Shown: positions 2,952-11,513 of the stretch, in pieces
How positions within the stretch are numbered: the stretch's first letter is position 1
Layout of the letters: the number at the start of each line of letters is the position of its first letter
Source of the DNA: Escherichia coli
GTDB lineage: Bacteria; Pseudomonadota; Gammaproteobacteria; Enterobacterales; Enterobacteriaceae
Length of the DNA stretch: 64,000 nt
Reading direction: 5' to 3' (one strand)
Assembly (NCBI RefSeq): GCF_003334405.1
Contig: NZ_QOWM01000005.1
The notes under the pieces: generated by a model
Database searches by the model: none
The model's input: the letters and a program-made list of their open reading frames with translations, nothing else
Told to the model about the DNA's origin: nothing
Program-made: the position numbers and the translations under genes

Positions 2952-4015
2952 TGTACGTTGCCGTGAAAGGGGGCGAGAAGGCGATCGACGCCGCCCACGC
3001 CCTGCAAGAGAGCCGACGCCGAGGCGATACCGATTTGCCCGAACTGAGCGTCGCCCAGATTGAACAGCAGCTTAACCTCGCGGTAGATCGCGTGATGACC
3101 GAAGGCGGCATTGCCGACCGCGAACTGGCGGCGCTGGCGCTGAAACAGGCCAGCGGCGATAACGTTGAAGCGATTTTCCTGCTGCGCGCCTACCGCACCA
3201 CGTTGGCGAAGCTGGCGGTAAGCGAGCCGCTCGACACCACCGGGATGCGTCTCGAACGCCGTATCTCCGCCGTTTATAAAGACATTCCCGGCGGCCAGCT
3301 GCTTGGCCCAACCTACGACTACACCCATCGCCTGCTCGATTTTACCCTGCTGGCAAACGGCGAAGCGCCGACGCTGACCACCGCCGACAGCGAACAGCAG
3401 CCGTCGCCGCACGTTTTCAGCCTGCTGGCGCGTCAGGGGCTGGCGAAGTTTGAAGAGGATAGCGGCGCACAGCCGGATGACATCACCCGCACGCCGCCGG
3501 TTTACCCCTGCTCACGCTCCTCCCGTTTGCAGCAGTTGATGCGCGGCGACGAAGGCTATTTGCTGGCGCTGGCCTACTCCACCCAACGCGGTTACGGGCG
3601 CAATCACCCGTTCGCAGGCGAGATCCGCAGCGGCTATATCGACGTGTCGATTGTGCCGGAAGAGCTGGGATTTGCGGTGAACGTCGGCGAACTGCTGATG
3701 ACTGAGTGTGAAATGGTTAACGGTTTTATCGACCCGCCGGGTGAGCCGCCGCACTTCACGCGCGGCTACGGGCTGGTGTTCGGCATGAGCGAGCGCAAAG
3801 CGATGGCGATGGCGCTGGTCGACCGCGCTCTGCAAGCCCCGGAGTACGGCGAGCACGCGACAGGCCCGGCGCAGGATGAAGAGTTCGTGCTGGCACATGC
3901 CGACAACGTCGAAGCCGCAGGCTTTGTCTCACACCTCAAACTCCCCCACTACGTCGATTTCCAGGCCGAACTGGAGCTACTCAAACGTCTGCAACAGGAG
4001 CAGAACCATGGCTAA
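2951..4015 (+). CDS. phnI: C-P lyase core complex subunit PhnI
   Basis: ORF 2831..4015 trimmed to ATG at 2951 ([16 protein letters not shown]...), 354 aa; overlaps phnH stop (TGATG). Confidence 0.92.
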   Translation: MYVAVKGGEKAIDAAHALQESRRRGDTDLPELSVAQIEQQLNLAVDRVMTEGGIADRELAALALKQASGDNVEAIFLLRAYRTTLAKLAVSEPLDTTGMRLERRISAVYKDIPGGQLLGPTYDYTHRLLDFTLLANGEAPTLTTADSEQQPSPHVFSLLARQGLAKFEEDSGAQPDDITRTPPVYPCSRSSRLQQLMRGDEGYLLALAYSTQRGYGRNHPFAGEIRSGYIDVSIVPEELGFAVNVGELLMTECEMVNGFIDPPGEPPHFTRGYGLVFGMSERKAMAMALVDRALQAPEYGEHATGPAQDEEFVLAHADNVEAAGFVSHLKLPHYVDFQAELELLKRLQQEQNHG

Positions 4016-8511: not shown

Positions 8512-9270
8512 ATGAGCCTGACCCTCACGCTCACCGGCACCGGCGGCGCACAGGGCGTTCCGGCATGGGGCTGCGAGTGTGCGGCCTGCGCCAGAGCGCG
8601 GCGCTCGCCGCAGTATCGCCGCCAACCGTGCAGCGGCGTAGTGAAGTTTAACGACGCAATCACCCTGATCGACGCCGGGCTGCACGATCTCGCCGATCGC
8701 TGGTCGCCCGGATCGTTCCAGCAGTTTTTGCTGACGCATTATCATATGGATCACGTCCAGGGGCTGTTTCCGCTGCGCTGGGGCGTTGGCGATCCGATCC
8801 CGGTTTACGGCCCGCCGGATGAACAGGGCTGCGACGATCTGTTTAAACATCCGGGCCTGCTTGATTTCAGCCACACGGTGGAACCGTTTGTGGTGTTTGA
8901 TTTGCAGGGGTTACAGGTCACGCCCCTGCCGCTCAACCACTCAAAACTGACCTTCGGTTATCTGCTGGAAACGGCACACAGCCGGGTGGCGTGGCTGTCT
9001 GACACCGCAGGCTTGCCGGAAAAAACGCTGAAATTTTTACGCAATAATCAGCCGCAGGTAATGGTGATGGATTGCAGTCACCCGCCGCGCGCGGATGCAC
9101 CGCGTAATCACTGTGATTTAAATACCGTGCTTGCGCTGAATCAGGTTATCCGCTCGCCACGGGTGATTCTGACCCATATCAGCCACCAGTTTGATGCGTG
9201 GCTGATGGAAAACGCACTACCGTCAGGGTTTGAGGTGGGGTTTGATGGGATGGAGATTGGGGTGGCGTGA
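8512..9270 (+). CDS. phnP: Metallo-beta-lactamase-fold phosphodiesterase PhnP
   Basis: 252-aa ORF, HYHMDH motif; last gene of phn operon. Confidence 0.93.
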
Positions 9271-9293
9271 TGAGAGGGAATGTGCGCGCTGGC

Positions 9294-9395
9294 CCCCTCA
9301 CCCTAACCCTCTCCCCAGAGGGGCGAGGGGACCGATTGTGCTCGATATTGAATATTGCGCTCGTTTTCTCCCTCTCCCCATTGGGGTGAGGGGCG
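9294..9395. repeat. Two copies of a GC-rich imperfect palindrome (CCCTCTCCCC-N3/4-GGGG(C/T)GAGGGG), boxC-like; likely convergent terminator region
   Basis: Read directly at 9294-9330 and 9369-9395 between the converging phnP and yjdP stops; family assignment tentative. Confidence 0.5.
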
Positions 9396-9416
9396 ATGCC
9401 TGCTCCATACCCAACC

Positions 9417-9746
9417 TCATCGCCCATACTCATCTTCCATTCTCCGCTCTTCATCCTCCAGTTGCCGACGCTCCTGATCAAGCTGGCGCTGGCGATCGTC
9501 CAGCTGCCTGCGGCGATCTTCAAACTGGCGGCGGCGGTCGTCATATTGTCTGCGCCGATCGTCGCTCACTTCACGCTGCCAGCCGTCGTCGCGCGAATCT
9601 TCATAGTCTCGCCCACGGTCAGGGTTATAAGCGTCATTAATCGCCTGCTGAATATTGCCAATGGTGTCGTCGATAATATCGGCCTGGGCCGGAACGGTGG
9701 ACAGCGTGAGCAGGGTGAATAAAAGAAATAGCGGAAAGCGTTTCAT
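9417..9746 (-). CDS. yjdP: Small secreted low-complexity protein YjdP
   Basis: 109-aa ORF with N-terminal signal peptide and highly charged D/E/R/Q repeats (DDRRRQ..). Confidence 0.8.
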   Translation of the reverse strand: MKRFPLFLLFTLLTLSTVPAQADIIDDTIGNIQQAINDAYNPDRGRDYEDSRDDGWQREVSDDRRRQYDDRRRQFEDRRRQLDDRQRQLDQERRQLEDEERRMEDEYGR

Positions 9747-9814
9747 TAGCCAACCTCAAAAAGAAACTCTATCCACATTAATCATTACTCATCCATGCAA
9801 GTAGTGGATGAATC

Positions 9815-10264
9815 TCAATTTCTCCGCTGCTCTATTGCCGTAATCGCCTCCACGCGTTGTTGATGACGACCGCCTTCGTACTGTGCGCCCAGCCACGCAT
9901 CCACAATCATTTTTGCCAGTTCGAGGCCAACCACTCGTGAACCAAAAGCCAGCACGTTGGTGTCGTTATGCTGCCGCGAAAGTTGCGCGGAATAAGGTTC
10001 GCTACAGACGACCGCGCGAATTCCGGCAAACTTGTTCGCCGCTATCGAAATACCGACGCCAGTACCACAAATCAAAATCCCGCCATCAACCTCTCCGCCA
10101 GCAACAGCCAGTGCGACTTGACTGGCGTAATGTGGATAATCAGTACGCTCTGACGACCAGGTTCCTTTATCAATCACTTCAACGCCACGCTCAACTAAAT
10201 GTGCCACTATTTCATGTTTTAAAATGAAACCGACATGATCACAGCCAAATGCAATCTTTTTCAT
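9815..10264 (-). CDS. rpiB: Ribose-5-phosphate isomerase B / allose-6-phosphate isomerase
   Basis: 149-aa ORF MKKIAFGCDHVGF...; RpiB/LacAB family. Confidence 0.93.
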   Translation of the reverse strand: MKKIAFGCDHVGFILKHEIVAHLVERGVEVIDKGTWSSERTDYPHYASQVALAVAGGEVDGGILICGTGVGISIAANKFAGIRAVVCSEPYSAQLSRQHNDTNVLAFGSRVVGLELAKMIVDAWLGAQYEGGRHQQRVEAITAIEQRRN

Positions 10265-10622
10265 TCATCTTCCCCGTCCGTGCAAAACTTCACAATCAAA
10301 AAACATTTGTGATGTTAATGAATTAAAAACACCCAAAATCGATGAATTACGCCTTCCTGATCTGTTTTACAGAGTTACATCTGACAGCGCAATAGCGTTA
10401 AAGACACTCACCATCCAGCAACATCTATCATCTAAAAAACCAGAAAAACAAATAACATCATGTTTTTAAACTAATTAAATGAAATAAAATTTTAAGCCAC
10501 TCGCCATTGTTCACAATAAAATAAACTTTATAAATTTTATTTTTTTGTGAAGTCGCCAGCATCTTTTCTGTTCTTGCTGTGGTGATATAGTGGCGTCTTC
10601 AATTCAAGGACAAGAGAACGTG

Positions 10623-11513
10623 ATGAGCCAGTCAGAGTTTGATTCAGCGCTTCCGAACGGTATAGGGTTAGCGCCTTACCTGCGAATGAAGCAGGAAGGA
10701 ATGACAGAAAATGAAAGCCGCATCGTGGAGTGGTTACTCAAACCCGGTAACCTGAGTTGTGCACCCGCAATTAAAGATGTCGCAGAAGCTCTGGCGGTAT
10801 CTGAAGCGATGATAGTTAAGGTATCAAAGCTGCTGGGGTTTAGCGGCTTTCGTAACTTACGCAGTGCGCTGGAAGATTATTTTTCTCAGTCAGAACAGGT
10901 ATTGCCTTCCGAGTTGGCTTTTGATGAAGCGCCGCAGGATGTGGTGAATAAGGTATTTAACATCACTTTACGCACCATTATGGAAGGTCAGTCGATCGTC
11001 AACGTTGATGAGATCCACCGTGCCGCCCGCTTTTTCTATCAGGCCAGACAGCGGGATTTGTACGGTGCCGGAGGATCAAATGCTATCTGTGCTGATGTAC
11101 AGCACAAGTTCTTGCGCATTGGCGTACGCTGTCAGGCCTATCCTGATGCTCACATCATGATGATGTCCGCTTCGTTGTTACAGGAAGGAGATGTTGTGCT
11201 GGTAGTGACCCATTCCGGGCGAACCAGTGATGTAAAAGCGGCCGTAGAACTGGCAAAAAAGAACGGGGCAAAGATTATTTGTATAACCCATAGCTACCAT
11301 TCACCGATAGCGAAACTGGCCGATTATATTATTTGCTCACCAGCCCCGGAAACGCCGTTATTAGGTCGTAATGCCTCGGCAAGAATATTACAACTAACTT
11401 TGCTGGACGCTTTTTTTGTCTCTGTCGCCCAGCTCAACATTGAACAAGCTAATATTAATATGCAAAAAACCGGCGCAATTGTTGATTTCTTCTCACCAGG
11501 CGCGCTGAAATAA
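10623..11513 (+). CDS. rpiR: RpiR/AlsR family transcriptional repressor (HTH + SIS domain)
   Basis: ORF 10590..11513 trimmed to ATG 10623 (MSQSEFDSALPNG...), 296 aa; divergent from rpiB across AT-rich 358-bp region. Confidence 0.9.
   Translation: MSQSEFDSALPNGIGLAPYLRMKQEGMTENESRIVEWLLKPGNLSCAPAIKDVAEALAVSEAMIVKVSKLLGFSGFRNLRSALEDYFSQSEQVLPSELAFDEAPQDVVNKVFNITLRTIMEGQSIVNVDEIHRAARFFYQARQRDLYGAGGSNAICADVQHKFLRIGVRCQAYPDAHIMMMSASLLQEGDVVLVVTHSGRTSDVKAAVELAKKNGAKIICITHSYHSPIAKLADYIICSPAPETPLLGRNASARILQLTLLDAFFVSVAQLNIEQANINMQKTGAIVDFFSPGALK

Follow-up and report, generated by a model that had tools for sequence, protein, structure and literature searches.

BoxC-type repeats beside yjdP, an Escherichia coli gene for a predicted exported heptad-repeat protein

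We analyzed a 64,000-nucleotide stretch of Escherichia coli DNA (RefSeq assembly GCF_003334405.1, contig NZ_QOWM01000005.1; hereafter the window, with positions counted from its first letter), concentrating on the junction between phnP and rpiB, where an earlier note had pointed out paired GC-rich palindromes next to yjdP, a gene for a highly charged repeat protein. Overall, we found that the repeats and yjdP are two unrelated, already catalogued E. coli features lying side by side. Judged by their letters, the first palindrome is a member of the BoxC family, also named PIT and TMECO, and the second is a degenerate fragment of the same family. The gene encodes a small protein, YjdP, with a predicted signal peptide, an amphipathic segment and six charged heptads. 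We hold this overall identification and the anatomy given below with high confidence. Everything in the earlier note had been catalogued before, the repeat in the literature and the gene in annotation pipelines, and our own additions are modest: a helical reading of YjdP, a conserved RcsB-like box upstream of its gene, a series of spacer alleles and a repeat polymorphism in the signal peptide. The features of the spacer are as follows.

9271-9416: phnP-yjdP spacer, 146 bp between the convergent stop codons, holding both palindromes
9294-9329, minus strand: palindrome 1, a complete three-block BoxC/PIT/TMECO element of type A with one mismatch, reading CCCTCGCCCCTCTGGGGAGAGGGTTAGGGTGAGGGG on the minus strand
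9295-9315, minus strand: HPG1 G-tract run GGGAGAGGGTTAGGGTGAGGG, a putative G-quadruplex or hairpin switch motif; exact match, with none expected by chance
9294-9350, no strand assigned: full BoxC unit of about 57 bp (palindrome 1 plus conserved flank), recurring at other chromosomal sites
9370-9393, no strand assigned: palindrome 2, a degenerate BoxC half with the C block and one G block, hairpin only

The two imperfect palindromes that had been described between the convergent genes phnP and yjdP are both present in the 146-bp spacer. Their hairpin parts read CCCTCTCCCCAGAGGGGCGAGGG (9307-9329) and CCCTCTCCCCATTGGGGTGAGGG (9370-9392) and together make up direct-repeat family D3, with copies that are 88% alike and 63 nt apart. 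Within the 64-kb window the pattern CCCTCNCCCN3-6GGGNGAGGG matched these two palindromes only, and it matched nothing in 100 shuffles. The position 9294, from which the note had counted, marks the start of the full repeat element and not that of the hairpin. What the note had left unrecognized was membership of the BoxC/PIT/TMECO family, for which we found a catalogue match. Palindrome 1 is letter for letter TMECO no. 22 in Table 1 of Holder et al. 2015 (PMC4666352), and the K-12 coordinates to which it maps agree. That entry, one of 23 TMECO triplex motifs, is given as 'type A mm' at K-12 4,314,285-4,314,320, and TMECO elements are those earlier named BoxC and PIT (PMC4666352). The TMECO consensus is CCCTCNCCC-N3-6-GGGNGAGGG-N3-GGGNGAGGG, and palindrome 1 satisfies all three blocks. 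Similarly, HPG1 no. 51 was placed between yjdP and phnP by Kaplan et al. 2016 (PMC5100583). BoxC is a non-coding family assembled from C blocks and G blocks of 9-10 nt, and single strands of these can fold into hairpins. Consensus oligonucleotides of the family form intrastrand triplexes or G-quadruplexes in vitro (PMC4666352, PMC5100583).

The element is not confined to this site. In megablast searches with a 112-bp query, positions 20-76 (9294-9350 in the window) recurred in other spacers, for example between tusA and zntA, at 91-93% identity, and the query found a median of 3 places per complete E. coli genome, which marks it as dispersed, multi-copy and intergenic. The recurring unit of about 57 bp agrees with the BoxC unit of about 56 bp. 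Palindrome 2 matches the first two blocks of the full TMECO consensus, but the third G block is absent on either strand: its hairpin is followed by GCGATGCCTGC on the plus strand and by AGAAAACGAGC on the minus strand. It is listed in neither the Holder nor the Kaplan catalogue, and its right arm, GGGTGAGGGG, is native sequence that is also present at the 'empty' site of other strains. Folded as DNA, palindrome 2 gives a 9-bp hairpin of -8.7 kcal/mol (z = -3.4), and the individual spacer elements range from -8 to -13 kcal/mol.

We found at least six alleles of the phnP-yjdP spacer (27, 34, 76, 95, 143 and 146 bp), differing in the number and orientation of BoxC blocks. They are listed here with the polymorphic segment; positions after an L number are those of the loci fetched for comparison.

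9275-9386, no strand assigned: 112-bp indel-polymorphic segment that carries both palindromes and is absent from strains with the 34-bp spacer
27-bp spacer: strains TUM13881 and EC08 (L014 1481-1507)
34-bp spacer: strains PS1Phumofeces1 and CLSC36 (L001 1572-1605)
76-bp spacer: strain DSM 103246 (L003 1572-1647)
95-bp spacer: strain ES1 (L013 597-691)
143-bp spacer: strain 23CRST011 (L015 1572-1714)
146-bp spacer: the window (9271-9416) and K-12

The 112-bp insert was detected at a coverage of at least 80% in 3087 of 5426 complete E. coli genomes (57%). The empty 34-bp site holds one native block, GGGTGAGGGG, and in the filled alleles this block serves as the final G block. The 76-bp and 146-bp alleles are separated by a 70-bp indel bounded by a 9-bp direct repeat, GAGGGGCGA; this repeat bounds the 70-bp indel only, and no clean target-site duplication was found around the 112-bp insert. 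The 95-bp allele of ES1 is a perfect four-block palindrome (CCCCTCACCC-TAA-CCCTCTCCCC-AGA-GGGGCGAGGG-CCG-GGGTGAGGGG), while the 143-bp allele of 23CRST011 approximates the reverse complement of the window insert and holds an inverted A and B pair. This series accords with the excess variability between strains reported for TMECO sites (PMC4666352). Mutually repeated and inverted BoxC blocks would drive insertion, deletion and inversion at the site. The spacer offers a small, ready-made set of natural alleles in which BoxC blocks have been gained, lost or inverted, and this set could serve studies of repeat rearrangement.

Since the palindromes sit exactly between two convergent stop codons, they might be functional 3'-end RNA hairpins that terminate or stabilize the phnP and yjdP transcripts and avert transcriptional collision. 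RNA folding, which the earlier note had proposed as a check, gave the 146-nt spacer a stability above that of shuffled sequences on either strand (z = -3.4 and -3.0); many family members lie at gene ends in the Kaplan table (PMC5100583), and the filled allele is commoner than the empty one. On the other hand, a scan of 9271-9416 on both strands for a hairpin followed by a T-run returned no terminator-like site. On the plus strand the hairpins are followed by GACCGATT and GCGATGCC, on the minus strand by AGAAAACG and GCCAGCGC, and because a U-tract is absent after either hairpin, the palindromes are not intrinsic terminators. An Rfam search of 9000-10700 at permissive thresholds gave zero matches, earlier experiments found neither promoter nor terminator activity for BoxC elements (as cited in PMC4666352), and many strains whose 27- and 34-bp spacers lack the elements keep phnP and yjdP intact. 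We regard a 3'-end function as improbable, and the palindromes are best read as passenger BoxC repeats. Two considerations weigh against that choice. A 'passenger repeat' is a default and not a demonstration, and the 146-bp spacer, as the majority allele (57% of genomes), may be tolerated or even mildly useful; for example, a 3' hairpin could protect yjdP or phnP mRNA.

Next to the spacer, yjdP presents the following anatomy.

9417-9746, minus strand: yjdP coding sequence, 109 aa, stop codon at 9417-9419
9681-9746, minus strand: Sec-type signal peptide, residues 1-22, with predicted cleavage between AQA and D
9693-9719, minus strand: three imperfect 9-nt repeats encoding FTL, LTL and STV within the signal-peptide hydrophobic core
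9627-9680, minus strand: amphipathic helix DIIDDTIGNIQQAINDAY, residues 23-40, near-invariant, at the mature N-terminus
9564-9626, minus strand: acidic linker rich in D, S, G and R, residues 41-61, variable between genera
9420-9563, minus strand: heptad region, residues 62-109, with six heptads of the form (D/E)(D/Q)(R/E)R(R/Q)Q(Y/F/L/M) followed by EDEYGR, encoded by 21-nt DNA repeats

The portrayal of yjdP as the gene for a low-complexity, charged repeat protein with matching repeats in the DNA is borne out, including the residues quoted in the note, with a period of 7 residues and 21 nt. The units are DDRRRQY, DDRRRQF, EDRRRQL, DDRQRQL, DQERRQL and EDEERRM, followed by EDEYGR. Self-identity of YjdP at lag 7 is 0.62 against 0.18 +/- 0.05 in 2000 shuffles (z = 8.1), and lags 14 and 21 are also significant. 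On the DNA, Tandem Repeats Finder reported a period of 21 with 3.5 copies and 75% matches at 9491-9563, and direct-repeat family D1 comprises four copies at 21-nt spacing at 9474-9560. Charged residues make up a fraction of 0.55 of the mature protein and 0.69 of the repeats. A comparison of repeat number, which the note had also proposed, revealed that heptad copies differ between strains and species. Among E. coli and its relatives, YjdP occurs in the 109-aa form of the window and in two sequence-distinct 102-aa forms, each one heptad short, one of which (P0039) was found on at least 1000 contigs; E. albertii carries a 123-aa form with two extra heptads, and minor variants span 100-108 aa.

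The signal peptide proposed earlier also holds under heuristic scoring. Its n-region is MKR (+2), its h-region is FPLFLLFTLLTL, with a 10-residue Kyte-Doolittle mean of up to 2.7, and its c-region, VPAQA before the cut and DIIDD after it, fits the -3/-1 rule; A22-D23 is invariant in the family alignment. The sequence contains zero cysteines, no lipobox and no twin-arginine motif, and a protein without cysteine is not a lipoprotein. YjdP is thus predicted to be exported to the periplasm and cleaved after A22, although it counts against this prediction that the signal peptide was judged by rule-based heuristics and not by a trained predictor. The short repeat inside the hydrophobic core has grown in some strains, to (FTL)x5 in TUM13881 and (FTL)x6 in EC08, giving proteins of 118 and 121 aa with h-regions of about 21-24 residues (yjdP at L014 1508-1864 and L016 1508-1873). 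Cores of this length may still be cleaved, or may anchor YjdP in the membrane instead. Immediately after the predicted cleavage site lies an element that the earlier note had overlooked, the near-invariant amphipathic helix of residues 23-40. Its hydrophobic moment is 1.91, compared with 0.73 +/- 0.37 in shuffles, a value reached by 7 of 5000.

YjdP matched the NCBIfam equivalog NF041443, 'DDRRRQL repeat protein YjdP', with 147.9 bits (cut-off 90, E = 8.9e-44), over residues 1-103 of the protein and positions 1-101 of the 101-position profile. Close homologues carry Pfam PF28054, 'YjdP'; a Pfam-A copy without PF28054 gave insignificant matches only (best E = 0.048). The family is very small: a search of 1.84 billion representatives recovered 53 clusters at E<=0.001 and, at the stricter E<=1e-10, 27, several of which are fragments or compositional matches. 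It is limited to Enterobacteriaceae, with named members in Escherichia, Shigella, Citrobacter, Cronobacter dublinensis, Buttiauxella, Entomohabitans and a Klebsiella metagenome-assembled genome. The architecture is constant: a signal peptide, the stretch AD-(I/x)-(I/L)-D ... I-G-N-I-Q-Q-A-I-N-D-A-Y, a variable acidic linker and about six heptads reading R-R-Q-L-(D/E)-(D/E)-R. Between E. coli and Citrobacter, the ratio of non-synonymous to synonymous substitution rates (omega, dN/dS) is about 0.07 over the whole gene. In the repeat region alone, the non-synonymous proportion (pN) is 0.047 and the synonymous proportion (pS) is 0.77, which is saturated, and 44 of 49 repeat residues are identical. 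We conclude that yjdP is under strong purifying selection.

The literature we searched contained no paper that assigns YjdP a function, in agreement with the earlier view that function is not evident from the sequence; YjdP has a family name only. PADLOC and PHROGs returned zero matches, giving no link to defence systems or phages, and a profile search of PDB sequences likewise returned zero matches. Names attached to homologues by the Joint Genome Institute ('Skp family chaperone', 'membrane protein involved in colicin uptake', 'RNase H-like nuclease' and 'RuvC/YqgF-like nuclease') contradict one another and almost certainly arise spuriously from the charged, low-complexity repeat. We also set aside weak NCBIfam matches to FlbB, RNase Y and MutS2, which fall far under the cut-offs, and long proteins matched through the repeats alone (P0156, P0160, P0161 and P0166), which were taken as compositional matches.

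Several lines of evidence bear on the shape of the protein. AlphaFold2 (AF2), run with a 21-sequence family alignment, drew a helix over residues 53-108 with a block-mean predicted local distance difference test score (pLDDT) of 88-97 over residues 61-100, a coil at residues 41-52 (block-mean pLDDT 53) and a helical segment at residues 23-40 with modest pLDDT. As far as about residue 52, the linker is probably flexible. The charges of the repeats are ordered such that each acidic residue lies 3-4 positions from an arginine. Opposite-charge pairs at i/i+3,4 number 36 compared with 21.5 +/- 3.4 in shuffles (reached by 1 of 5000), and like-charge pairs number 2 compared with 20.2 +/- 3.4 (reached by 0 of 5000). 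Dense opposite-charge pairs at i/i+3 and i/i+4, together with few like-charge pairs, are the signature of charged single alpha-helices. The hydrophobic position of the heptad is always filled (Y68, F75, L82, L89, L96 and M103) and is preceded by Gln in five heptads and by R102 in the sixth. We infer that the repeats form one long, salt-bridge-stabilized alpha-helix of about 7-8 nm, a rod that would resemble a charged single alpha-helix with a one-residue-wide Leu/Gln stripe; a Foldseek search of the AF2 model against the PDB gave zero matches, as expected for an isolated helix. We see about an even chance that this reading prevails over its rivals. It is weakened by the AF2 predicted template modelling score (pTM) of only 0.35, by the readiness with which AF2 models charged repeats as long helices, and by the one conserved hydrophobic residue per heptad, which could mean an oligomeric coiled coil.

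The earlier note had favored an intrinsically disordered periplasmic polyampholyte, and in such a scheme the mature protein would act by bulk physical chemistry, for example as a hydrophilin-like shield or by retaining water and ions. The high charged fractions with a net charge near zero, the low complexity, the lack of a Pfam-A domain in the copy scanned and the tolerance of the repeat number to change are all compatible with this, as is the induction of yjdP together with osmotic and desiccation-type genes (osmY, osmB, otsAB and yjbJ) in the part considered here of a study of LolCDE inhibition (PMC5105897). What speaks against disorder is the non-random, helix-stabilizing charge order, the AF2 helix and the conservation of exact residues, each heptad keeping a hydrophobic residue and a Gln at positions that are invariant across genera. 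A constraint on composition only would not give 44/49 identity with saturated synonymous sites. We consider a disordered mature YjdP unlikely, and the description fits at most the short linker at about residues 41-52. A homo-oligomeric coiled coil, in which a dimer or trimer is held together by the Y/F/L/L/L/M stripe and serves as a multivalent scaffold or inhibits a specific periplasmic partner, draws on the strict 7-residue periodicity, the invariant hydrophobic position with Gln before it and the confidently predicted long helix; moreover, the conserved amphipathic N-terminal helix could cap or pack on the bundle. With the hydrophobic residues placed at 'a', however, the 'd' residues are R71, R78, R85, E92, E99 and E106, always Arg or Glu, and the canonical a/d seam that we looked for is absent. 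Hydrophobic residues make up only about 14% of the repeat, and the protein has neither a sequence match to solved coiled coils nor a Foldseek match in the PDB. The coiled coil strikes us as doubtful, and the single helix remains the reading that we carry forward.

The genes on either side were identified as in the earlier note, in agreement with RefSeq, whose labels are phnP, 'DDRRRQL repeat protein YjdP' and rpiB, and with K-12.

8512-9270, plus strand: phnP, last gene of the phosphonate operon, convergent with yjdP (open reading frame and RefSeq annotation)
9815-10264, minus strand: rpiB, upstream neighbour of yjdP on the same strand (open reading frame and RefSeq annotation)
318-nt rpiB-like gene: L001 2004-2321 and L003 2046-2363, compared with rpiB at 9815-10264 in the window

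In the window, rpiB and yjdP are separated by 68 bp. Many complete E. coli chromosomes match the 631 bases at this junction with 100% identity, and the K-12 MG1655 counterparts are rpiB b4090, yjdP b4487 and phnP b4092; gene order, the 146-bp spacer length and the 112-bp insert all agree with K-12 (window position plus K-12 coordinate equals 4,323,614). The location of yjdP at the boundary of the phn/yjdM locus is constant, while its upstream neighbour varies. In other E. coli strains this neighbour is a truncated rpiB-like gene beside yjcS, or a hybrid kinase; in Citrobacter and Entomohabitans it is a hybrid histidine kinase, in Cronobacter a 771-aa open reading frame and in Buttiauxella a divergent SSF transporter. 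In many E. coli strains, the full rpiB, alsR and the allose operon are replaced by a truncated gene of 318 nt, labelled 'RpiB/LacA/LacB family', with yjcS after it, and strain 23CRST011 (L015) carries a disrupted ATP-binding, kinase-like gene at the rpiB position. On the other side of the gene, the yjdP-phnP gap holds a higB/helix-turn-helix toxin-antitoxin pair in Citrobacter (L009 4487-5157) and a 203-aa open reading frame in Buttiauxella (L006 4582-5193), and the downstream flank of yjdP thus appears to be an insertion hot spot outside E. coli too. In strain FLI21 (NZ_CP139808.1, 2127049-2128455), two yjdP annotations flank an IS1X2 transposase, and the gene is apparently split by IS1; this suggests that yjdP is dispensable in at least one isolate.

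Upstream of yjdP, we found three short elements that are shared between genera.

9754-9757, minus strand: Shine-Dalgarno GAGG, 7 nt before the yjdP ATG, conserved in the five-genus alignment
9775-9780, minus strand: putative -10 hexamer TAATGT, kept as TAnnnT in five genera
9804-9817, minus strand: RcsB-box-like TGAGATTCATCCAC, core of the conserved block and candidate regulator site, overlapping the rpiB stop codon

A 16-nt block, TTGRGAWTYNTCCRCT, lies 72-74 nt before the yjdP ATG in the window and in four other genera (L004, L006, L007 and L009, around 3927-3944) despite different upstream genes, and it was present upstream of yjdP in every yjdP locus fetched. The TAnnnT hexamer follows 23 nt past the block, with T, A and the final T invariant in five genera, in upstream DNA that is otherwise unalignable. 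Conservation of the block at a fixed spacing argues for a functional upstream site. The core, TGAGATTCATCCAC, agrees with 7 of the 8 specified positions of the RcsB homodimer box, TN(G/A)GAN4TC(T/C)NA (PMC7913699), and resembles the RcsAB box TaAGaatatTCctA; its centre would fall near -42 if TAATGT is the -10 element. An RcsB-like box fits the published response of yjdP to a LolCDE inhibitor, with RNA increases of 9.5- and 10.6-fold (PMC5105897); the induction list of that study also includes osmB, bdm, wca genes, rcsA, ivy, mliC, spy, cpxP and osmY. In addition, overproduction of CsiR lowers yjdP about 3.5-fold, with a chromatin immunoprecipitation peak nearby (PMC5217608). A hairpin with a 7-bp stem, TCATCCA-CTACTTGCA-TGGATGA, lies just past the rpiB stop at 9785-9807 on the minus strand and overlaps the conserved box; it has no T-run after it and is not conserved in other genera.

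Direct control of yjdP by RcsB is, in our judgement, evenly poised between right and wrong. Four observations count against it. Where the RcsB consensus ends in A, each of the five genera has C; chance alone would yield the loose consensus about 2.3 times per 64 kb; a sigma-70 scan called no promoter upstream of yjdP; and LolCDE inhibition induces the RpoS and Cpx regulons as well, according to the same portion of the study (PMC5105897). Some of this would suit a different arrangement, in which yjdP is the distal gene of an rpiB-yjdP operon without a promoter of its own and the block is an RNA-level element or binds another protein. The two genes share a strand and a gap of 68 bp with no terminator between them, and the missed last position of the RcsB consensus points the same way. 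Yet the block, its distance from the ATG and TAnnnT are kept in Citrobacter, Entomohabitans, Cronobacter and Buttiauxella, where the upstream gene is different or divergent, and also in E. coli strains without the als/rpiB region. Furthermore, yjdP is on the list of genes induced more than 5-fold by the LolCDE inhibitor, while rpiB is absent from the part of that list considered here (PMC5105897). An operon without a separate yjdP promoter seems to us unlikely, and we retain RcsB control as the working assumption.

Put together, these observations would be accommodated as follows. Transcription of yjdP would start from a separate promoter that the envelope-stress regulator RcsB activates via the conserved box near -42, and YjdP would accumulate in the periplasm upon damage to the outer membrane or to lipoprotein traffic. 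There, as a guess, the N-terminal helix and the arginine-rich rod of YjdP might attach to an anionic component of the envelope or to a partner protein. We have low confidence in any specific molecular function for YjdP, and the full picture of an RcsB-switched, exported single-helix rod of about 7-8 nm, varying in length by heptads and binding anionic envelope material or a partner, is tentative and rather doubtful as a whole. If true, such a rod would be a new kind of envelope-stress effector upon outer-membrane damage. YjdP is among the remaining uncharacterised proteins of E. coli K-12, for which our data argue for a structured helical rod under strong selection, and the RcsB-like box offers a cheap, testable handle on its regulation.

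Finally, we compared both features with known systems. The yjdP gene of the window is the type member of the NF041443/PF28054 family, the same gene as K-12 b4487, with no difference. Charged single alpha-helix (SAH, ER/K) domains are known from eukaryotic proteins such as myosin VI/X and caldesmon. YjdP shares with them high charge, opposite pairs at i/i+3 and i/i+4, seven-residue periodicity, a long isolated helix (predicted in YjdP) and changes of length by whole repeats. Unlike SAH domains, YjdP uses Arg with Asp/Glu and almost no Lys, has a conserved hydrophobic residue and Gln in each heptad, and is bacterial and predicted to be exported; the likeness would be one of analogy, not homology. 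Among small Rcs- or Cpx-induced periplasmic proteins, Spy, CpxP, Ivy, MliC and OsmY share with YjdP a signal peptide, small size and predicted helical content, and appear with it in the portion of the LolCDE-inhibitor induction list considered here (PMC5105897). In contrast, YjdP has zero sequence or profile similarity to them, and their chaperone or inhibitor activities have no known counterpart in YjdP. Turning to the repeats, palindrome 1 has the three-block consensus, intergenic position, unit of about 56 bp and strain-to-strain variability of the BoxC family, whereas palindrome 2 corresponds to the hairpin part of the BoxC definition and departs from its triplex or quadruplex part. Five K-12 BoxC sites carry an inverted pair of type A and type B elements, and the site in the window pairs its type A element with a degenerate partner instead.

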